Source: a virus
Taxonomy: Duplodnaviria > Heunggongvirae > Uroviricota > Caudoviricetes
DNA: 13,169 bases
Strand: one strand, 5' to 3'
IMG/VR virus record: IMGVR_UViG_2721755711_000005
Span: 1-13,169 of that record
Below are positions 1,963 to 12,514 of the stretch, one piece after another. Position 1 is the first letter of the stretch; each line of letters begins with the position of its first letter. Below the pieces are notes generated by a model. It did no database searches and was not told the origin of the DNA. It saw only the letters and a program-made list of their open reading frames with translations. A program made the translations under genes and the position numbers.

Positions 1963-2238
1963 TGGTGTGAGGCGTAACACAATGAACATAACAAAAAGCG
2001 CCCCATTGCCGGAGCGCCCTTGCGAACAATTAGCCTGCCGCACCAAAAATAAATATGTGCAGGGGAATTATATCAACCGTGTGGCGAAGCGCCACAATTG
2101 CCGGATAACGGGCAAAACAAAGGCGACCGCAAAGGGTCGCCAGTGGATATTACGGCAAATCAAACTTGAACGCATCGCCAACAATGCCACATTTGCGGCT
2201 GGTGAGCAATGTGATCAGCGTGCTGGTTTGCTGGTGGG

Positions 2239-2436
2239 CTATTCCTGCTCTTTAGCATCGCCATGCTGCGATGTTTTCCAGGTATGCGATCCCATTTTTG
2301 TGCGCCTGTACTCTTTAAGGAACTTCTCAAGGACAAACGCACATGGCGCGAATCTTTCCTGTTCATGTTCGCTTACCGCGTTTTTGCGTTGTTTTTTCCT
2401 GGATGAAGATAATTTCTTTAATGATTTGTCAGTCAT
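2239..2436 (-). CDS. Hypothetical small basic protein (65 aa), paralogous 3' end to neighbouring small gene
   Basis: Lys/Arg-rich ORF ending ...DAKEQE. Its last codons and stop share DNA identity with the 3' end of gene 2494-2673 (TCCTGCTCTTT core). Confidence 0.4.
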   Translation of the reverse strand: MTDKSLKKLSSSRKKQRKNAVSEHEQERFAPCAFVLEKFLKEYRRTKMGSHTWKTSQHGDAKEQE

Positions 2437-2493
2437 CGTAGATACCTGTAACCCTGTGCGCCACAGTTCACCGCACCACGGCGCTGGTGATGG

Positions 2494-2673
2494 TTACTCC
2501 TGCTCTTTGGCCTTGCGCCGCTGGCGGTACTCAACTTCTCGCTTTAATGCTGCTGTTACAAACTGCCCTGTACTTTCACCAGGCATTTTTACCGCCTCAA
2601 CATTGTTCATAACTTCATGCGGAACCCTTGCCGCAACTGTTTGTGATTTTGCGTTTACTGCTTTTGTCGCCAT
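2494..2673 (-). CDS. Small putative DNA-binding protein (59 aa from ATG 2673; possibly ribbon-helix-helix-like), candidate repressor
   Basis: ORF track starts at GTG 2682, but the in-frame ATG at 2673 has a GAGGGG RBS 8-9 nt upstream. Sequence MATKAVNAKSQTVAARVPHEVMNNVEAV...QFVTAALKREVEYRQRRKAKEQE has a beta-helix-helix-like pattern. Divergent from the operator at 2724-2775. Confidence 0.5.
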   Translation of the reverse strand: MATKAVNAKSQTVAARVPHEVMNNVEAVKMPGESTGQFVTAALKREVEYRQRRKAKEQE

Positions 2674-2723
2674 GTTGTGCACCCCTCACAAAAAACAAAT
2701 GCAGTATGCAGGAAAAAAAATAA

Positions 2724-2775
2724 GTGTTCAACACTTGACGTGTTTAACACCTAGATTTAAATTGGTGTTCAACAC
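2724..2775. promoter_or_regulatory. Operator: three 11-bp palindromes GTGTT(C/T)AACAC in a divergent promoter region
   Basis: GTGTTCAACAC at 2724-2734, GTGTTTAACAC at 2740-2750, GTGTTCAACAC at 2765-2775. TTGACG at 2735-2740 (-35-like) lies between sites 1 and 2; TAAATT at 2758-2763 is a possible -10 after a 17-bp spacer. Confidence 0.6.
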
Positions 2776-2872
2776 CTTATTAATGCAAGGTGCAGAAACG
2801 ACGAAACCCGGCAGTGCGCGAACACTAACCGGGCTTCTAACCACCAACGATAGCAAGATTATCGAGGTAGCT

Positions 2873-3235
2873 ATGAGAAATCATAACCAAACTAAACCCG
2901 AATTTATATACACCTTTACGGCGCTACACCGAGATCGCATGGCTGACGGCGCAACTACGGTACATGTAGCCGCTGACACGCTGGTTGATGCCAGCAGGAT
3001 GGTTAAAGAGATGGGCTACGTTGCGGCGTTCTGGAAAGGGCGCGAAGAAAACACGCTGTTTATTCAGAAATGCGAAAACAATTTTATCTGGCGTTTTATC
3101 GCCCTGAGCACGGCGCAACCGCGCATGATTACCATTGAGGCCACCAGCGAACAGGAAGCACGCCAGCAATCCCCGGCTGGCTGCGTGATGGTATTCGCCG
3201 CCCGTATTCGTCAGGGGGTGCACCATGTGCAATAA
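2873..3235 (+). CDS. Hypothetical protein (120 aa), first gene of plus-strand replication operon
   Basis: In-frame ATG at 2873 within the long ORF 1967-3235, with GAGGT 4 nt upstream. The upstream part of that ORF overlaps the two minus-strand genes and the operator, so only this 3' part is called. Confidence 0.45.
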   Translation: MRNHNQTKPEFIYTFTALHRDRMADGATTVHVAADTLVDASRMVKEMGYVAAFWKGREENTLFIQKCENNFIWRFIALSTAQPRMITIEATSEQEARQQSPAGCVMVFAARIRQGVHHVQ

Positions 3236-3680: not shown

Positions 3681-3980
3681 ATGAAACAGAAAATTTCTGA
3701 CTTTACTGCCAGCGGCCTCCCTCGGTCTGAAATCCGCCCCGGCGATATTTTCCGGGATAACTACGGCGGCACGGTAACGATTAAACACGTGGCGGGACGG
3801 TGCGTTACTTACCGCCGTGATGGGTACGGCTATGACTGCGTGATGCCTGCTTATCAGTTCCGGCGTGATTTTTCCCTGGTACAGGCAGCGCAACGCAGTA
3901 AGCCCACCAGCAGGGAAAAAGCACGGGAAAATATTAAGAAAATAAAAAGCATGCTCAGCGCATCCAGAGGTAAAAAATGA
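3681..3980 (+). CDS. Hypothetical protein (99 aa)
   Basis: GGAG RBS upstream. Stop overlaps the start of the helicase gene (3977) by 4 nt. Confidence 0.5.
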   Translation: MKQKISDFTASGLPRSEIRPGDIFRDNYGGTVTIKHVAGRCVTYRRDGYGYDCVMPAYQFRRDFSLVQAAQRSKPTSREKARENIKKIKSMLSASRGKK

Positions 3981-5383
3981 AACTGGCACCGAACGTAAAA
4001 CTGTTACCGAAAGATAAACACACTGAGGCGGTTATTTTTGCGGGTGATAATGCTCACTCCTTTGCAGAACATTACATGATTGCACAGGCCAAAAAAGCAG
4101 GCGATCCCATCCCTCCGGTTTACCTGGGCCGTTATCAGTTAAGCGAACTGGACAACTTACAGATTGTTGATGAAGGACGATACAGAGCAAAGGTCATACG
4201 CGCCGGAAACCTGGACGATATGCAGATGCTGACCATTGCCACAAAACTGGCGATCGCCGGAGTCCAGGAGGCGCGGCTACTTTCTGAAAATTTCGAACTG
4301 CTGGAGAACTGGAGCGACCAACTACCACGACTACGGGAAACATGGGAGAGAGGGGAAAGCCTGGTCATGAATGGCAGAAAGCGAAAAATCACGCTTCCCA
4401 TCTCATGGGGTTCTGAGGGATTCGACGCGCAGCAAAGCTACGTAATTAAGGGGCTTATTCCGGCTGAATCATTATGCAGCACCTACGGCGCGAGTGGTTC
4501 CTATAAATCGTTCCTCGCCATTTCCTGGTCGTGCCATGTTGCCACAGGTATGGCATGGGGAGGCCGCAGGGTAAGTAAGGGCGCGGTTATCTATATCGCT
4601 GGTGAAGGCAGCATGGGCGTAAAACGCCGCGTAAAGGCGTGGGAGATAACCCACGACAAGGTGGTTACAGATTTGTGCATCATTAACGCGCCGGTATTCC
4701 CTGCATCGCCTGACTATGTGGAGCAGGTTATCAGGACTGCCGGACTTGTTAAGAGCAGAACGGGCGAAAATGTGCGGCTGATTGTGATCGACACGCTGGC
4801 CCGTTGCTTTGGTGGGAATGATGAAAATGATTCCCGTGATATGGGCGCATTTATCCAGGGGTGTGACGCGATAAAGCAGGCCACAGGGGCCACGGTGCTG
4901 GTGGTTCACCATTCCGGCAAGGATGAAACAAAGGGGGCGCGTGGTTCCAGCGCATTCCGTGCCGCGCTTGATGCAGAGTACCGAATCAGCCGGGAAAATT
5001 CAGACGTTACAGCACTGGTGGCGGCGTGTACGAAGATGAAGGACGCAGAGGAGCCAAAAGAAAGCGCATACGACCTTAAAAGCGTGGAGGTGTTCACCGA
5101 TACAGATGGCGAAGAGATTGTGTCTATGGTGGTGATTGACGTTCCCCGCGCCCCTGCTGAACTGGAACGCATCGAGGAGGCCGGGAACAAGACGGAGAAT
5201 CACGCCGCATTATGGCAGTGCATCAGAACGCGGACGGCACACGGGGAATCATGCACTATTGCCCTGCTGCGCGACGATATGAAAAAGCTGGGGTATGAGA
5301 TGAAGCACTTCCGGCGCTGGCTGTACAAGCTGGAAAAAGACGGCGTGATCACTATCGACGGCAATGACGTGCATCCACTGTAA
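3977..5383 (+). CDS. Replication protein with RecA-fold ATPase domain (AAA_25 / RepA-like helicase)
   Basis: 468 aa. Walker A YGASGSYKS, Walker B RLIVIDTLARCF, and a VLVVHHSGKDETKGARGSSA sensor region typical of RepA/DnaB-like AAA_25 ATPases. Immediately followed by an iteron array. Confidence 0.8.
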   Translation: MKLAPNVKLLPKDKHTEAVIFAGDNAHSFAEHYMIAQAKKAGDPIPPVYLGRYQLSELDNLQIVDEGRYRAKVIRAGNLDDMQMLTIATKLAIAGVQEARLLSENFELLENWSDQLPRLRETWERGESLVMNGRKRKITLPISWGSEGFDAQQSYVIKGLIPAESLCSTYGASGSYKSFLAISWSCHVATGMAWGGRRVSKGAVIYIAGEGSMGVKRRVKAWEITHDKVVTDLCIINAPVFPASPDYVEQVIRTAGLVKSRTGENVRLIVIDTLARCFGGNDENDSRDMGAFIQGCDAIKQATGATVLVVHHSGKDETKGARGSSAFRAALDAEYRISRENSDVTALVAACTKMKDAEEPKESAYDLKSVEVFTDTDGEEIVSMVVIDVPRAPAELERIEEAGNKTENHAALWQCIRTRTAHGESCTIALLRDDMKKLGYEMKHFRRWLYKLEKDGVITIDGNDVHPL

Positions 5384-5585
5384 AAGTGGGGGATAAAAGT
5401 GGGGATAGCGGGGAATTTAACAAAATTGAAACGCTATTCCCCACTTTCTGGCCTGTATACATCCAAAAAAGTGGGGAGTAAAAAATACAATGAAAAACAA
5501 AGAATTAGACTTACCCAAAAAACGAGGTGGGAAGCAAGTGGGAAATTTTAAAAGTGGGGAACAAAAGTGGGGGTAGTGGGGAATG
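5384..5585. repeat. Iteron array, putative satellite replication origin
   Basis: About 8 direct copies of AAAGTGGGGA-like units (5384-5395, 5395-5407, 5465-5478, 5524-5534, 5535-5545, 5549-5560, 5563-5573, 5574-5585) plus one inverted copy CCCCACTTT at 5439-5447, with AT-rich spacers, directly downstream of the helicase gene. Confidence 0.8.
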
Positions 5586-6356
5586 AATAAAGAAAATATG
5601 ACCTGTCAGGGGATGAGCTACAAAGAACGCGAAGCACTCAAGGCCTTTGCGGGGCAGTGTGAGAAGCACGGAGATATACAGAGCCTAACCAGAACGCTGG
5701 TCATGATTGCGCACTGGATGCGACAGAGCAAGGCGGTGAGTTTTACGGAATACGCCAGCCAGTGGACAGAGGCACAGCGTGAACGGAGCGACGGCAATCA
5801 CTCAACACCCGAAATGGCGAAGCAATGGCCTTTCAGTGGTAAACGGTGCATCAATCCGGGCGGATCTGATTATTACCCGTGCGGAACAGAAAAAGAGCGA
5901 CAGAATGATGAGGTGGAAATTAAACACGCAGTAACGGTAATTCTTGCCGCTTACCCATTTTTTAACCGCGATGGACTTGAACTGTACAGCCGTGATAAGG
6001 CATGGGTGCACCCACTTGATTATGCGCCCTTCATGGCGGAGGCGATGAGCTGTTTACGCTGGATAAGGGAGAACAACCTTACCGACTGTAAGATTGCATC
6101 ATTCCCTGGAAAAAATCCGACATCCTACGGCCTGAAACATTGTGTTGAGCGTGTGAATCAGAGAAGAGCTAAGGGCGACGGGCAACCAACAGAGCCGACA
6201 TACATCACAAACGGCGCATTAATCGCCGCAATGGTCGCATCGGGTTATCGGGTGAAGCGAACGGGAAGAATGAACTGCCTGTTTAATATCTCACACAAAC
6301 AGCTTAAGCGCGCACTGATGACAGGACCAGTAAAAACCGGAGAACAGACAGCATGA
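5583..6356 (+). CDS. Hypothetical protein (257 aa); start codon uncertain
   Basis: Long ORF whose stop overlaps the SSB start. Weak RBS at the first ATG; alternative in-frame starts at Met6 and Met11. No family recognised. Confidence 0.55.
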   Translation: MNKENMTCQGMSYKEREALKAFAGQCEKHGDIQSLTRTLVMIAHWMRQSKAVSFTEYASQWTEAQRERSDGNHSTPEMAKQWPFSGKRCINPGGSDYYPCGTEKERQNDEVEIKHAVTVILAAYPFFNRDGLELYSRDKAWVHPLDYAPFMAEAMSCLRWIRENNLTDCKIASFPGKNPTSYGLKHCVERVNQRRAKGDGQPTEPTYITNGALIAAMVASGYRVKRTGRMNCLFNISHKQLKRALMTGPVKTGEQTA

Positions 6357-6775
6357 CAGCACAGATAGCGGCTTACGGGCGGCTGGTGGCTGACCCGCAG
6401 TTAAAGACCACCAGCAAAGGGACACAAATGGCGATGGCGAGTATGGCGGTTCCCCTGCCGTGCAGCCAGGCAGATGACGGAACGGCGACGATGTGGTTAT
6501 CCGTCCTGGCGTTTGGCAGACAGGCCGACGCACTGGCCAGACACCACAAAGGCGAACTGGTGAGCGTGGCGGGTAACATGCAGGTAAGCCAGTGGACAGG
6601 CCAGAACGGCGAAACGCGGCAGGGCTGGCAGGTTATCGCAGACAGCGTAATCAGTGCGCGAACGGCGCGACCGGGCGGCAAAAAAGGTCAACAGGGCCAG
6701 GCTACTGACGCGCTGAACAGGGCAAAACAACAGGCGGGTAATGATGATCCGTACGGGGACAACATACCGTTTTAA
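6353..6775 (+). CDS. ssb: Single-stranded DNA-binding protein (short SSB)
   Basis: 140 aa. N-terminal OB-fold-like region (AAYGRLVADPQLKTT...), Gly/Gln-rich linker and an acidic C-terminal tail DDPYGDNIPF resembling the canonical SSB tip DDDIPF. Confidence 0.8.
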   Translation: MTAQIAAYGRLVADPQLKTTSKGTQMAMASMAVPLPCSQADDGTATMWLSVLAFGRQADALARHHKGELVSVAGNMQVSQWTGQNGETRQGWQVIADSVISARTARPGGKKGQQGQATDALNRAKQQAGNDDPYGDNIPF

Positions 6776-6811: not shown

Positions 6812-7336
6812 ATGACAAAGCTGACCATTAACCGAAAACCGAAAGGCATTTACGGCACGCTGCAGAAAACGACGCAGGCGATACAGCAGCAGGATAAAAC
6901 CACATCGGCGCATAAAGTGATACCCGGCAATCAGAACGCACAGCAGAAGCCCACAGGGGCGACACCGTGGCGGCATATGACCAAACGCCAGCGCAAAAAC
7001 CGCAGACGCGTTAATCGCCTCACTGAGATGTGGCCTGACTTATTCAGCCGGGAAGCGCCAAAACCGCTGAAGGTGGGGATATTCGACGACCTTATGCAGG
7101 ATATCGCCGTCAGGGGGCTGGCATTCGGGCCGGGGGCATTACGTGCGACGCTGGCATCTTATACGCAGTCTCCGCGCTATTACCGCGCCTTAATGGCTGG
7201 TGGGGTACGCTACGACCTGAAAGGCCAGCCATATGGGGAGGTTACACCACAGGAACAGCAGGAGGCAGAAACGCGGCTGATGGCACTGAATGAGAAGCGC
7301 AAACGCCGGGCAGCAAAGGAGAAGACGGGCACGTGA
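6812..7336 (+). CDS. ProQ/FinO-domain RNA-binding protein
   Basis: 174 aa. PLKVGIFDDLMQDIAVRG...LRATLASYTQSPRYYRALMAGGVRYDLKGQPYGEV aligns with the ProQ N-terminal FinO-like domain (PLKIGIFQDL...[35 protein letters not shown]). Basic C-terminal tail. Confidence 0.8.
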   Translation: MTKLTINRKPKGIYGTLQKTTQAIQQQDKTTSAHKVIPGNQNAQQKPTGATPWRHMTKRQRKNRRRVNRLTEMWPDLFSREAPKPLKVGIFDDLMQDIAVRGLAFGPGALRATLASYTQSPRYYRALMAGGVRYDLKGQPYGEVTPQEQQEAETRLMALNEKRKRRAAKEKTGT

Positions 7337-7608
7337 TTCACGACAGCAAAGCGGAAGAACTGGAGGCTAAAGGGCTGTACCGAAGAGCGGCGGCGCGGTG
7401 GGCTGAGGTTATGCAACTGGTGAACACCGATAAGGAGCGCGAACAGGCGGCAAAGCGTCGCGCGGAATGTATCCGTAAGGCAGCACGCTCACCCGTTATG
7501 GCGGATAACTTCGGGGCGCTGAAAGAGGCTGTAAACCGCACTCATGCGGTGATGGGGATGGAAGACGCGGGTAAATCCGTCTGGCGGAACTACCCGAAGC
7601 AGCCCTGA
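7333..7608 (+). CDS. PerC/Pch-family transcriptional activator-like protein, GTG start
   Basis: 91 aa. KAEELEAKGLYRRAAARWAEVM...EREQAAKRRAECIRKA...AVNRTHAVMG matches my recollection of the PerC/Pch signature (LE-GL-RRAA-W--VM...RR--C...NRT). AAGGAG 11 nt upstream; overlaps the stop of the ProQ-like gene. Confidence 0.65.
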   Translation: MIHDSKAEELEAKGLYRRAAARWAEVMQLVNTDKEREQAAKRRAECIRKAARSPVMADNFGALKEAVNRTHAVMGMEDAGKSVWRNYPKQP

Positions 7609-7705: not shown

Positions 7706-7728
7706 GCCGGAACACTCCGGCTTTTTTT
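7706..7728 (+). terminator. Rho-independent terminator ending the replication operon
   Basis: GCCGGA-ACAC-TCCGGC hairpin followed by a run of 7 T. Confidence 0.75.
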
Positions 7729-7805
7729 ACGGGTCCTCCTGATGGGGTACCCTTACCGCGGGGCGACGGACGCGCGGAAAACGGCTAATTTTTGAATTTT
7801 TATCG
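7722..7805 (+). repeat. cos-like element A (cosQ-like plus degenerate cosN-like), paired in inverted orientation with 12515-12595
   Basis: TTTACGGGTCCTCC...CGCGGGGCGACGGACGCGCGGAAAACGGCTAATTTTTGAATTTTT resembles the bona fide cos at 8548-8640. Its reverse complement recurs at about 90% identity at 12515-12595. Confidence 0.6.
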
Positions 7806-8098: not shown

Positions 8099-8547
8099 GT
8101 CTGCGATTTGCCGTTCTCCGTTGCGCTGGTGGTAACGTCACGACATGTCACCATCACGTCACGCTGATGGCGAAAGTCAGGGTTAACCAGTACCGGAACG
8201 GGTAGCCCGATGTACTGTTACCGTTCTGCTGGCTGGTGGAGTAATTGATAACGGTTATCATCAACGGGAGGGGTGGATCAAATCCCTGTAGTCCTGGCTG
8301 TCAGGGACCGCCGCCCAACCCTTCTTCACATCGCCGCAGGTTCGAAAACTTTTTTTTGGGAAGGTGCGCACAGACTTGATAGATAAAACCTATCAGACAA
8401 AACCACGCCAACCCCGCGCCATTGCTGGCATCGTTAAAAAAACTCACTCCACCAGCAGGCTAAAAAACCGTGATTTTTCCGGTTTTATGGGCTGAAAAGG
8501 GGCTCCCTAAAAAACACCTCTTACACTGCCGGACAGGAGCGGTGGCT

Positions 8548-8770
8548 TTTCACGGGTCCTTTCCGGGGATCTGAAACACCACGGGGCGGCAGACGCGCAG
8601 ATTTTCACTATTTATGAAAATTTTTCAGGGAAAAAGCATGTCGGTACTTCTTGCATGTAACATTATGTTTTTATTGCAACTAACTATCATAAACATACGA
8701 CACCATAACGCCGGAAAATCCCGTTTTTCAGGCGTTTCATGTCGGAGGTGGTTTTTGATGAGGATTTGAT
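8548..8770 (+). other. cos: Lambda-type cos site: cosQ-like (8548-8583), cosN (about 8584-8595), cosB (8596-8770)
   Basis: TTTCACGGGTCCTTTCCGGGGATCTGAAACACCACG|GGGCGGCAGACG|CGCAGATTTTCACTATTTATGAAAATTTTTC closely parallels the phage lambda cos junction as I recall it (...TTTACGGGTCCTTTCCGGTGATCCGACAGGTTACG|GGGCGGCGACCT|CGCGGGTTTTCGCTATTTATGAAAATTTTCC), and sits immediately upstream of a Nu1-like gene exactly as in lambda. Confidence 0.85.
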
Positions 8771-8772
8771 AA

Positions 8773-9357
8773 ATGAATGTTAACAAAAAGAGACTGGCGG
8801 AGATTTTCGGTGTTGATCCGCGCACAATTGAGCGCTGGCAGATGCAAGGGCTTCCCCATGTATCTGGTGGCGGAAAAGGTGTGGAGGTGACTTTCGACTC
8901 TACACAGGTGATCGAATGGTATGTACAGAGGGAGAAGGAGATCGAAAACGAAAAACTCCGCAGGGAGCTTGATGATTTACGTGCTGCTGGTGAATCAGAT
9001 TTACAGCCAGGCACAACAGAGTACGAACGCTACCGTCTCACCAAAGCACAGGCGGACGGGCAGGAACTGAAGAACGCCAGAGAGACAGGGGAAGTTATAG
9101 ATACTGAGTTCGTACTCTGTGCGCTTCGTGGACTGGCGAGTCAGATTTCTTCGATCATGGATAGTTTGCCGCTCACAATGCAAAGGCAGTTCCCCGGGAT
9201 GACTCCGGCAATGCTCGATGGCCTGAGGAAGGAAACAGCACGAGCCTGTAATGCGTGCGCTAAAACTGCCGATAACCTACCCCGCATTCTGGAAGACTAT
9301 CTGATGGAAACAACCGGAAACGTGCCGGAGAAGTTACGGCAACAGAAAGGTGAGTGA
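8773..9357 (+). CDS. Nu1-like small terminase subunit homologue (satellite packaging-redirection protein, Rpp-like)
   Basis: 194 aa, collinear with lambda Nu1 along its whole length: [28 protein letters not shown]...[12 protein letters not shown]...[11 protein letters not shown]...[28 protein letters not shown] versus Nu1 MEVNKKQLADIFGASIRTIQNWQEQGMP...GGGKGNEVLYDS...[11 protein letters not shown]...[28 protein letters not shown]. No large terminase gene follows. Confidence 0.9.
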
Positions 9358-9618: not shown

Positions 9619-9867
9619 TTACGCATCTTTAAAACTGGGTTTGCCATTAGCTAAACGCCAGGTTTTAACTTCTTGTACGATGGCTTCCGGGCTATCGTCT
9701 TTTCCGTTCTCTGGATAAAAAATTAGATCAGAGCCTGATGGATGTTCAGAGAGGCGCCTGAATTCTCTGACTAACTGCTCGCTTTCTTTTTCTGTTCCTT
9801 CTGCATTACATATTTTTCGAACAAGATCTAAGAATTCATTTTCAGTATAGTCGTTTATTGTTTTCAC
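9619..9867 (-). CDS. Colicin/pyocin DNase immunity protein (Im7/Im9 family)
   Basis: 82 aa, GTG start. [82 protein letters not shown] aligns along its full length with Im9 (...[79 protein letters not shown]). One nt separates it from the toxin stop. Confidence 0.92.
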
Positions 9868-9868
9868 G

Positions 9869-11560
9869 TTATTTTCCCCTGTGAATTTCTATATGCCGCT
9901 TTGGTGTTGTGATACCCATATTATCAACGTTATAAACTTCGCCCCCCTCACTTATAGGTTTAATATGGTGTATCTCGTAACGTTCCCTCCCACCAACTCG
10001 ATCCACTTCCCTTGTGAATGGTGAACGTCCTTTGCGAATGTTCGTGAGGTTGTGTGCTCTGAACTGTCTTGACAAATCAGCATCGTTTGCCACTTCTGCC
10101 CAAAATGCCTCCCTGAATCGATCAAAATTCGCAAATGTTCGCCCACGCATCCGCTCCGCAATCTGGCTGGGTACTGGTGCACCATTTCCCTTATCGGCAT
10201 CCACCAGCCACGCCCCGCTAATTTTTTGTCCTTTCCCTGTTACCTGCCCGGCGTTATTCCTGATGTAAATATAAATCGGCGGTATATCCGGGAATGGCAG
10301 GATCAGAATGTAATCCGCAAAATCCTTTTCTTCCGGGGCCGGGCTGGTTGTGGCGTGTAATCCCGTGTCATCCGGTAACGGGTCCACCATCACCGGATTC
10401 GGCAGCACTGGCGGGTACTGATTTCCCGTGTGGTACGGTACATCAATCCCCGGATTATCCGGCGTCCAGATGAGTGTGATACGCGGGTCTTCCTCCGTGG
10501 TGAACGTGTACGCCTTTCGTCTGTCGTCCCACTCCATCCGGCGCACGCGCACCCTGTCCTGTCCCGGTGGCGTGTGCCAGCCATGCGGCACGGGGTTCCC
10601 CCGGCTGTTCGTCTCCCAAGTAAAGCGAACACGGGTAGGCACTTCCCTGACCTGTTCGGCCCTCATACGGTCGATAAAATCCTGCTCCCCGTCATTCAGC
10701 CGGCCGGGCATCATCCCTATCAGAAACGCCGCCAGTGGCAGCCCCGCAACCCCGGTCGCGGTTTCGCCCACGACGGCCCACGTTCCCCGGATGGCAAAAT
10801 TTCCCGCCACCGGACGCAGAACGCTCGCCCCGGCAATTGCCGCTCTGGCCCGTTGTGCGCGCTCCGCTTCCTCAACCGCACGCTGATAATCCATTTCCTC
10901 GTGATGGCCGTTCCACCATTTCCACAGTGCACTGCGTTTCTTCGGCTTCGGAATATCCTCCGGCGCAATCAGTTTTTTCTTTTTGACCGCCTGTGCACGC
11001 TGCGGGGCTTCCGTGTCTGTCACCGGGTCAGTCTGCGGAACGGCCTGATAAATCCCCATCGGTGCAAAGTTGGTATGCGGCTCCCGCTGGTCGCCCGCGT
11101 CGTTGCATCCCGCACCGCGCAGACAGGATTTTGCAAACACCCGGTTACGTTCCCGTTCTTCCTCCCGGCGTTTTTCTTCAGCTTCCCGTTCTGCCCTGCG
11201 TTGTGCTATCAGTTCCGCCTGTTTTTTCTGTGCAATTTCTGCCGGCGACGGCCCCGCCCCCATCCACTGACCGAGCGGGGCAATAATCCGGTTTGAACCT
11301 TCAGGGCAGCCACAGTGAACAACACAGCCATCAACGGCAATGGGAATATCTATCACCTTAAAACGGGCTTCTCCTTCTGCCACCATGCCGGGCTTTCCGC
11401 ACGCCGGGCAGGGAGTGGTTTTGTCTCCCTTACGAATAAGACCGTTACCACAGACGTTGTAGTTAGGGACAGGAAGGGAAGTAATCAGCCATGCGCCGGT
11501 GGTGGTTTTGTCACAGGAAAGCGCCATTCCCCTGCCGTGTATATCCGGTCTGTATGTCAT
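9869..11560 (-). CDS. Polymorphic toxin: Cys-rich N-terminal domain, charged linker, central domain of unknown function, C-terminal colicin E9-type HNH DNase
   Basis: 563 aa. The C-terminal ~130 aa ([49 protein letters not shown]...[55 protein letters not shown]) align with the colicin E9 DNase domain, including the HNH motif. N-terminus has multiple Cys ([16 protein letters not shown]). GGAG RBS 8 nt upstream; ATGA overlap with the upstream gene. Confidence 0.9.
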
Positions 11561-12045
11561 GGCTTACACTCCGGCACCAGAAAATCCGCTGGCATACTTT
11601 CGCCTTCACGACAACAAAGTAACGTTATTCGCTGCGGCGTACTGATAATCTCATCCCCGTTATCCAGTTGGCTGCCAACCAGAGCATACCCTTTTCCGTG
11701 ACAACTGAACGCACTGCCGGAACCGCTGATAATACGGGCCGTAGTGCCGTCCTGATACGTCACCTCATCCCCGACCATCGCCATTTCTGCCATCTCTCCG
11801 GTGCTGTCAGCGACTTCGCAGCCGGAACTGGCGGAAGACACCACCCCGCCATTACGGGTAAGGCTACCGGTAGTGGCATGTCGCCAGATAGCCACAATCG
11901 GATGTTGACGGCAAAATTCCTCCTGCTCCCTGATTATCGCCAGCGCATCATCGGACATATCAGCAAGCGCTTCCTCTGTGAAAGGGGATTTATCCAGTTC
12001 TGCCAGTACATCGGCGGTCAGTTCGTTGGTATATTGCTTCATCAT
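11557..12045 (-). CDS. Hypothetical protein (162 aa) co-transcribed with the toxin: acidic helical N-terminus, Gly/Ser-rich C-terminal half, Cys cluster; candidate PAAR-like partner, adaptor or chaperone
   Basis: First gene of the minus-strand operon, translationally coupled to the toxin by an ATGA overlap. C-terminal half AMVGDEVTYQDGTTARIISGSGSAFSCHGKGYALVGSQLDNGDEII is loosely reminiscent of PAAR-type repeats; ends with LLCCREGES...PECKP. Confidence 0.6.
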   Translation of the reverse strand: MMKQYTNELTADVLAELDKSPFTEEALADMSDDALAIIREQEEFCRQHPIVAIWRHATTGSLTRNGGVVSSASSGCEVADSTGEMAEMAMVGDEVTYQDGTTARIISGSGSAFSCHGKGYALVGSQLDNGDEIISTPQRITLLCCREGESMPADFLVPECKP

Positions 12046-12514
12046 GTTTCTGTTTTTCCTGTGGTTAACAATCGACCAGAATCATAATGAAAGGGAATGC
12101 AAAAAAATTGATGGATATCAAAATGAAAAATAAAATCATCCCGGTAAAACAGGATATCTACCCCACCAGCATCCCTGGATTTTCAGATAGTTGCTTTTAG
12201 CCTCTGAACAACATCTGCTGGTGGCTGATAATTACAATAATTCCTGCCCCCTGGCGTTTCTGAGCATGTTTACCGCGAATTTTGCGCAAAACACCTTAAC
12301 AATTCTTAAATTTTAAAAACACTTCAGTGATAAGCATCACCGCTCCCGCTCACATTTGACACAGGCAACTCCATCTGGCAGGTGAAAATCAAATTTATTT
12401 ATATATTTCAATTGATTGTAAACTGGTCTAATGACAGGGGAGAAAAAAGACTGTACAGGTGAAAACAGAAATAATTCTTAATTATCAATGAATTATCACA
12501 CATGCTGCCGCCGC

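Follow-up and report, generated by a model that had tools for sequence, protein, structure and literature searches.

The locus considered here raises the question of what a repeat-filled gap of 199 nucleotides (nt) does and which protein reads it. The gap lies in a 13,169-nt stretch of viral DNA (IMG/VR record IMGVR_UViG_2721755711_000005, Caudoviricetes; hereafter the window), between a gene that we call rep (3977-5383, + strand) and the ATG of the next gene (5583), and nearly all of it consists of AAAGTGGGGA-like 10-mers. The initial annotation, made from the sequence alone, took these repeats for an iteron-type, satellite-like replication origin read by the adjacent helicase, and the comparative tests that we ran all agree with that view. 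Based on sequence comparison, structure prediction and analogy with characterized islands, it is very probable that a phage-inducible chromosomal island (PICI) uses positions 5383-5582 as its vegetative replication origin, and that the product of the upstream gene, Rep, is the cognate initiator-helicase.

A direct reading of positions 5200-5800 identified nine direct copies and one inverted copy of the AAAGTGGGGA-like unit, where eight or more direct copies and one inverted copy had been claimed. The left iteron set (5383-5414) comprises three direct copies on the + strand, at a position conserved in related loci: AAAGTGGGGG at 5383-5392, which begins on the final base of TAA, the stop codon of rep (5381-5383), AAAGTGGGGA at 5396-5405, and ATAGCGGGGA at 5405-5414. 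Beyond an AT-rich spacer (5417-5437; 76% A+T), the inverted copy (5438-5447, - strand, AAAGTGGGGA), a 20-nt spacer and a direct copy (5468-5477, + strand, AAAGTGGGGA) form an inverted repeat of 40 bp (5438-5477), hereafter the dyad, with the palindrome TGTATACA (5454-5461) at its centre. An A-rich tract of 46 nt (5478-5523; 76% A+T) then divides the array into a left group (5383-5477) and a right group (5524-5582). The right group is a set of five direct copies on the + strand, again at positions conserved in relatives: GAGGTGGGAA at 5524-5533, CAAGTGGGAA at 5535-5544, AAAGTGGGGA at 5551-5560, AAAGTGGGGG at 5564-5573, and GTAGTGGGGA at 5573-5582, directly followed by the ATG at 5583. Both the AT-rich spacers and the running of the array into the next start codon, as first described, are therefore present. 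The iteron core is ~10 bp long, with copies spaced 9-16 bp apart; nine of the ten copies share one orientation, and the sole inverted copy lies to the left of the A-rich tract. A block of 36 nt with three iterons is present twice at 89% identity, the last three copies of the right set repeating the left block 168 nt downstream. We propose that the dyad is the core where two Rep assemblies face each other, and the A-rich tract is a candidate unwinding region.

All four exact copies of the iteron in the window fall inside the array, which makes up 1.5% of its length, as do six of the seven copies with at most one mismatch and 9 of the 20 with at most two mismatches. In a test that assumed no motif, we compared the most repeated 8-mer (at most one mismatch, both strands) with the same quantity in 300 dinucleotide-preserving shuffles. 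The top 8-mer occurs nine times in the 203 nt of the array, whereas the maximum among shuffles was six and none of the 300 reached seven; 203-nt segments overlapping the array also have the highest repeat score anywhere in the 13 kb. Two small open reading frames (ORFs) called inside the array (5399-5551, + strand, and 5511-5669, - strand) were rejected as spurious, since the region is conserved as repeats and RefSeq relatives carry an intergenic annotation there. A scan of the region for DnaA boxes gave no match with fewer than two mismatches; the two-mismatch matches overlap iterons, and we rejected DnaA dependence as a feature of the origin. In a single-strand fold of the region, the inverted iteron pair is able to form a hairpin (z = -2.7). 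An Rfam scan of the whole window matched no RNA element, and the papers retrieved by a full-text search of the literature with the iteron sequence were all eukaryotic and unrelated.

Loci for relatives of Rep, 80 in all, were taken from many genera of Enterobacterales, with each species represented by a single genome, and the 260 nt past each stop codon were searched de novo for repeats. In 66 of these, the array follows the same positional plan: it opens at the stop codon with two to three direct copies, has an inverted copy near +50 and, past a TATA core, another direct copy near +85, and closes after a central region with three to five direct copies between about +140 and +195. The plan is constant while the iterons change. 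The core GTGGGGA is shared by the window, Escherichia coli, and some Pantoea and Kluyvera. Xenorhabdus has GTGAGGA; Pectobacterium, Morganella, Serratia, and others have GTGGGGGA; and the core of Kosakonia, Phytobacter, Enterobacter, Kluyvera, and Rosenbergiella is GTGCGGC. In 65 of the 66 loci, irrespective of iteron type, a TATA(T/C)A core occupies the middle of the stretch that separates the inverted copy from the direct copy after it, and the central region has a median A+T content of 74%.

Two further observations concern these related origins. An element, CTGAAA(G/C)CCGCGCCATTACTGG, is present in the central origin regions of five loci (L091, L092, L099, L058, and L024) and also in the origin of the named PICI EcCICFT073 (L085, ~12184-12225), where it is followed by a TTACTGGC/GCCAGTAA hairpin. 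It is found in origins whose iterons and Rep cores are unrelated and may be a single-strand initiation or primosome site; the window lacks it and has the A-rich tract in its place. In the relatives whose central region is only 43-50% A+T, that region contains the element. One of the five loci (L099) is the Klebsiella pneumoniae "plasmid" pKp_Goe_795-4 (CP018459.1), a circular molecule of 16,971 bp with integrase, capsid, head-tail adaptor, terminase, and tape-measure annotations, in which a RepA-type rep with GTGCGGC iterons is the only visible replicon. It is a PICI-like element of the capsid-forming kind and looks like a satellite that was excised and assembled as a replicon; its circularity fits an extrachromosomal existence and does not prove replication.

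Rep is 468 amino acids (aa) long and matches RepA/AAA_25 (Pfam, E = 4e-43), in keeping with its first description as a RepA-like helicase. The protein matches PHROG family phrog_2850 over its full length, its core also matches primase/helicase PHROG families, and its sole sequence match in the PDB is the RSF1010 RepA helicase (1g8y; E = 4e-5, residues 155-320). It is laid out as an N-terminal domain (~1-130), a RepA/DnaB-like AAA_25 core with a RecA fold (~146-390), and a predicted C-terminal winged helix (~400-468; 5174-5380, + strand). AlphaFold2 modelled an N-terminal alpha/beta domain (10-125) and the C-terminal domain (400-468) with confidence. A Foldseek search with the full-length model gave a weak match to the T7 gp4 replisome as its best result and was otherwise uninformative because the helicase core was modelled with low confidence; we re-predicted the C-terminal domain alone. 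This prediction (pLDDT 82-92, ~90 over the folded part) has the topology H-H-H-beta-beta, and the top structures retrieved for it by Foldseek are all DNA-binding domains of the winged-helix type (DtxR/IdeR, Fur, BlaI, ArsR, MarR-type, and FtsK-gamma), with probabilities of 0.95-0.99, TM scores of 0.57-0.68, and weak E-values from 0.025, as expected for a domain of only 65 residues. The C-terminal domain is thus confidently predicted to be a winged helix. The N-terminal domain is common to other E. coli PICI Rep alleles, and the same C-terminal domain sits behind at least two different N-terminal modules, a primase in one case and the PICI N-terminal domain in the other. In E. coli alleles, the N-terminal, core, and C-terminal parts differ in their patterns of similarity (e.g., 92% in the N-terminal part with 68% in the core), which indicates domain shuffling.

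One position in Rep changes along with the iterons. We aligned Rep from 71 loci with a clear iteron class; among all columns, residue 444 was the best single column for iteron class (normalised mutual information 0.94). Histidine at this position goes with the iteron core GTGGGG (11 loci), asparagine with GTGAGG (21 loci), lysine with GTGGGGG (32 loci), and serine with GTGCGG (7 loci), giving the rule that H or K accompanies G at base 6, N accompanies A, and S accompanies C. Across genera, this covariation is partly confounded by shared ancestry, and the only near-independent contrasts are pairs of E. coli alleles; we therefore used the rule to predict the iterons of alleles not yet examined, and the predictions held in all nine. 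The E. coli alleles have H or N at residue 444. Alleles P0094 and P0105 (H444) have AAAGTGGGGA iterons; alleles P0077, P0099, P0060, P0096, and EcCI042 (N444) have AAAGTGAGG in every copy, the inverted one included; and alleles P0119 (Lelliottia) and pKp_Goe_795-4 (S444) have GTGCGGC. A further allele, P0113, for which there was no prior prediction, has G at residue 444 and GTGCG-like repeats.

Two near-isogenic pairs of alleles provide the sharpest contrasts. The cores of P0077 and P0094 are 96.4% identical and those of P0096 and P0105 are 98.4% identical, with four differences in the C-terminal domain in each pair; the sole difference common to both pairs is residue 444, and all iteron copies, including the inverted one, switch from G to A. 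Residue 440 and the other high-scoring columns were rejected as determinants, as they do not discriminate H-type from N-type E. coli alleles. In the window, the H444 codon (CAC, 5306-5308) lies just ahead of the predicted recognition helix (445-454). Pairing of asparagine with adenine and of histidine or lysine with guanine is classical in direct readout. On balance, the alignments slightly favour the proposal that residue 444, at the N-terminal end of the recognition helix, sets origin specificity by reading base 6 of the iteron. We did not find this rule in a literature search, which was not exhaustive.

The rep gene and the array are also inherited together. In matches H16-H18, the block of high identity covers 3969-5587 of the window (query positions 70-1688), that is, rep and the array, and the flanks are diverged. 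In locus L086, the block begins 8 nt ahead of the rep start and stops after the first 4 nt of the next gene; DUF4222 and the downstream genes are diverged. We propose that rep and the origin form one specificity module that recombines between islands as a unit. The next gene (5583-6356, + strand) encodes a 257-aa protein with no Pfam or NCBIfam match; RefSeq gives the same start in locus L001, and an 83-aa gene replaces it in L002, L003, and L086. This gene occupies a position of variable cargo outside the origin.

The published description of Gram-negative PICI origins places them directly 3' of rep, with two iteron sets around an AT-rich region (PMC6092414). Experimental tests of such a replicon concern the rep-ori of EcCICFT073 only; this fragment maintains a temperature-sensitive plasmid at the restrictive temperature, and deletion of rep or ori abolishes or reduces this maintenance (PMC6092414). 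As the layout has already been described for PICIs, the finding of an origin here is correct but ordinary. What is new is the H444/GTGGGGA specificity variant of a known module, that of the PICI EcCI042, whose Rep is among the four "Pri-Rep" sequences chosen to represent E. coli PICIs (Fillol-Salom et al. 2018, ISME J, PMC6092414). Rep of the window is 63% identical to EcCI042 Rep over its full length. The two islands share the order DUF4222, rep, ~200-nt array, small gene, SSB, and PerC, and they share a RepA/AAA_25 Rep with the same C-terminal domain, the same iteron plan with its inverted copy, and the CCTGTATACAT core. They differ in that EcCI042 has N444 and AAAGTGAGG iterons rather than AAAGTGGGGA; the helicase cores are only ~68% identical, and the packaging modules are different.

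EcCICFT073 resembles the window in its island architecture and in its origin, where iteron sets surround a central region directly 3' of rep. Over its first 126 residues (part of the domain spanning residues 1-130, 3977-4366), Rep of the window is 47% identical to the N-terminus of EcCICFT073 Pri-Rep (L085, 10242-10620). However, EcCICFT073 has an unrelated helicase core (D5_N/DUF5906/Pox_D5, a P4-alpha-like core of superfamily 3 [SF3], versus AAA_25 of superfamily 4 [SF4] in the window), and its iterons are CTGTCTACC, in left and right sets that are oppositely oriented across a 289-nt gap. Because the core and the iterons differ, the function tested there is not automatically transferable. 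Rep of Staphylococcus aureus pathogenicity islands (SaPIs) is a self-loading helicase of the superfamily III clade, and its C-terminal winged helix binds iterons that follow rep on both sides of an AT-rich region (PMC9371898). The window likewise has a putative initiator-helicase with a predicted C-terminal winged helix, short iterons after its own gene on both sides of an AT-rich tract, and probably matched Rep and ori specificities. In contrast to the superfamily III (AAA+) helicase of SaPIs, its core is AAA_25/RepA with a RecA fold. SaPI iterons are 5-6 nt long and face each other across the AT region, whereas those of the window are ~10 nt long in flanking arrays with the same direction, and a single inverted copy makes an internal dyad.

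T7 gp4-like primase-helicases that end in a winged helix are encoded by PICI-like islands of Xenorhabdus, Pectobacterium, Morganella, and Serratia; they are homologous to Rep across the core and C-terminal parts (~135-468; 51-65% identity) and share the downstream iteron plan. These relatives are ~680-730 aa long and begin with Zn_Ribbon_Prim and Toprim_3 domains (e.g., L005 2840-5023 in Xenorhabdus and L038 2972-5038 in Pectobacterium), whereas the window Rep has the 130-aa PICI-type N-terminal domain in their place. RSF1010 and other IncQ plasmids have a homologous helicase core (1g8y) and an iteron origin independent of DnaA boxes. IncQ iterons are ~20 bp long, in 3.5 copies, and are bound by RepC, while RepA is the helicase and the primase RepB' acts at ssi sites. 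The window, by contrast, has numerous short iterons and a helicase fused to a predicted DNA-binding domain; no match to the RepC or RepB' families was found among the scanned ORFs. A classical iteron plasmid origin (Rep_3/RepA-pi-TrfA type) has a Rep_3/WH1-WH2 initiator, 17-22-bp iterons in regular tandem, and DnaA boxes. The island proteins scanned include no Rep_3-type domain, and the window differs from that class in its ~10-bp iterons and its lack of DnaA boxes. In satellite P4, the multidomain alpha primase-helicase, of SF3 type, binds short repeated octamers through a C-terminal winged helix at ori and crr clusters. Unlike P4 alpha, the window helicase is of SF4 type, with one compact cluster adjoining its gene in place of the two separated clusters, ori and crr, that P4 needs. 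P4 has been compared with PICIs before (PMC6092414), and the islands EcCIRM13514, EcCIATCC25922, and EcCIIHE3034 carry a P4-type "DNA primase family" Rep, not one of RepA type.

The IncQ arrangement suggests that a separate initiator (DUF4222, another island protein, or a host factor) might bind the repeats while Rep serves as helicase only. The only solved relative of Rep, RSF1010 RepA, does not itself bind iterons, and rep in PICIs is invariably preceded by DUF4222 (3681-3980, + strand), whose gene overlaps the start of rep. We nevertheless consider such a division of labour improbable. Rep carries the extra C-terminal winged helix that is predicted here and absent from RSF1010 RepA, and its residue 444 tracks the iteron base in the 71 loci and the nine later alleles. 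The similarity of DUF4222 is independent of iteron type, as the protein of a G-type island (L088) is 90% identical to that of an A-type island (L090), which argues against DUF4222 as the reader of the iterons; moreover, the conserved block of H16-H18 begins at the rep start codon and leaves DUF4222 out.

It is similarly unlikely that the array is mainly an operator or roadblock for the downstream genes rather than an origin, although a dual role is conceivable. Iterons serve also as autoregulatory operators in many plasmids. Here, the last iteron adjoins the ATG at 5583, and in the E. coli alleles, G-rich iterons take the place of the Shine-Dalgarno sequence. Outside the E. coli alleles, however, ~20 nt with an ordinary Shine-Dalgarno sequence of their own separate the last iteron from the next start codon. 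A scan of 5000-6000 predicted no sigma-70-like promoter and no terminator, the downstream gene is variable among islands while the array stays with rep, and ten sites across 200 bp, together with an A-rich tract and a dyad inside the array, exceed what an operator needs. The homologous position in EcCICFT073 is a tested origin (PMC6092414). The further suggestion of the initial annotation, that binding of the initiator may also control the next gene, is not supported by these observations. Bound Rep may act as a transcriptional roadblock, or read-through transcription may activate the origin.

That the repeats are a packaging site (pac- or cosB-like) for the small terminase of the island is very unlikely. 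Repeated elements that bind proteins can occur in packaging sites, and a Nu1-type small terminase is among the products of the island, but a lambda-like cos (cosQ-like plus cosN-like) lies at ~8547-8630, directly upstream of terS and 3 kb from the array. The array is inherited with rep despite different packaging modules (an HK97-type capsid and P27-family terminase in L001 and L002), and iterons that covary with a Rep residue likewise speak against a packaging site. Finally, a chance or compositional origin (G-rich low complexity or G-quadruplex DNA with no specific protein recognition) is barely credible despite nine GGG/GGGG runs on one strand and a high GC skew, given nine copies where none of 300 shuffles reached seven; the G-quadruplex idea was rejected because related origins keep the plan with iterons free of G-runs (GTGAGGA, GTGCGGC), and G-quadruplex potential is therefore not the conserved property.

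With the repeats read as an origin served by Rep, a mechanism can be proposed. The rightward operon would express Rep after induction, as PICI biology suggests. The C-terminal winged helix of Rep would then read the 10-bp iterons, with H444 contacting G at position 6, as suggested by the covariation and the predicted fold. On the direct arrays and on the inverted pair around TGTATACA, Rep may assemble a hexameric helicase with a RecA fold (SF4, gp4/RepA-like); the dyad pair would position two Rep assemblies face to face, and the flanking direct arrays would raise the local concentration of Rep. By analogy with SaPI Rep and EcCICFT073, the helicase ring might load itself after opening the TATA core of the dyad, the 46-nt A-rich tract, or both, and the SSB of the island would coat and stabilise the single strands. 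Priming would be supplied from elsewhere, because the window Rep lacks the Zn-ribbon/Toprim primase of its relatives in other genera.

Several observations, along with the ancestry confounding noted above, count against an origin that works in this way. Domain scans recognised no primase in Rep and the region has no DnaA boxes, which offers no evident route to priming of the leading strand. The central region of some relatives is only 43-50% A+T, which leaves the site where melting starts uncertain; with values as low as 43%, the conserved core is the iteron dyad with its TATA centre and not the AT-rich tract. Both flanking arrays have the same direction, unlike those of the SaPI and EcCICFT073 origins, and the two-hexamer model is therefore not directly transferable. 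The helicase core of Rep is poorly modelled by AlphaFold2. Furthermore, EcCI042 itself, which has a RepA-type replicon, was not transferred in the published assay (PMC6092414).

The genes of the window and their order are those of an Escherichia-type PICI, a phage satellite. It is syntenic with the named PICIs EcCICFT073 and EcCI042, and its closest relatives (~95% DNA identity) are chromosomal E. coli islands; some close relatives are capsid-forming islands with HK97 capsid, portal, and terminase genes. The island is small and has an integrase, alpA, and a unidirectional rightward operon with rep, and it has no set of phage structural or lysis genes. The genes from int to terS all lie on the + strand within ~9.4 kb, in the order int, alpA, Icd-like, DUF4222, rep, repeats, 257-aa gene, SSB, ProQ, PerC, cos, and Nu1-type terS. 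Protein scans identified a tyrosine integrase (1-1242), AlpA (1756-1962), an Icd-like segment (the C-terminal end of ORF 1967-3235), ProQ/FinO (6812-7336), PerC (7333-7608), and the Nu1-type small terminase with the lambda-like cos upstream (terS; 8773-9357), all on the + strand. SSB (6353-6775, + strand; Pfam SSB, E = 9e-16) is encoded by the island as part of its replication module, and an SSB gene occupies the same position in EcCICFT073, EcCI042, and other islands.

Other features of the window lie outside the replication module. ORF 1967-3235 is a mechanical call of 422 aa with a GTG start, and only its last ~50 residues match anything; the matches are to the domain of Icd-like cell-division inhibitors and to PHROG families with the label "transcriptional repressor". 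The true gene is probably far shorter, the other possibility being that the N-terminal 370 residues are a novel fusion. Two adjoining 20-nt units, AAAACAGTGGGTACCGTTTT and AAAACGGTGGGTACTGTTTT (1650-1691), form a 42-nt palindrome ~65 nt upstream of alpA (1756), probably the operator/promoter region of the rightward operon. The cos region upstream of terS (~8547-8630) consists of a cosQ-like TTTTCACGGGTCCTTTCCGG and a cosN-like ACGGGGCGGCAGACGCGC plus TTTATGAAAATTTTTCAGG; these sequences are very similar to lambda cos as quoted in the PMC6092414 supplement. A second cosQ-like copy is present at 7724-7737. The region suggests that the PICI is packaged through cos and exploits lambdoid helpers. 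The minus strand from 9619 to 12045 encodes a PAAR/pyocin-S/colicin-DNase toxin (9869-11560), an immunity protein (9619-9867), and a second PAAR protein (11557-12045), and this toxin-immunity block is either island cargo or flanking chromosome. Within the toxin gene, the 8-mer CACCGGAT occurs ~6 times (at most one mismatch, ~10300-10550), probably as a coding repeat.

The origin identifies the island as a phage satellite that replicates, and with it the rep-ori specificity module is defined. The comparison adds evidence, at the level of sequence, that RepA-type (SF4) PICI initiators work like those of SaPIs and EcCICFT073 despite an unrelated helicase core, with the design of a helicase, a winged helix, and downstream iterons reused, convergently or modularly. 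If residue 444 does set the specificity, PICIs would gain mutually orthogonal replicons by a one-codon change and a concerted change of ~10 iterons, which would let several islands coexist without cross-initiation (up to 10 matching places are found per E. coli genome) and would give a replication initiator a "recognition code" of a rare kind that is amenable to experiment. Matched orthogonal rep-ori pairs are also possible compatible replicon parts in E. coli.

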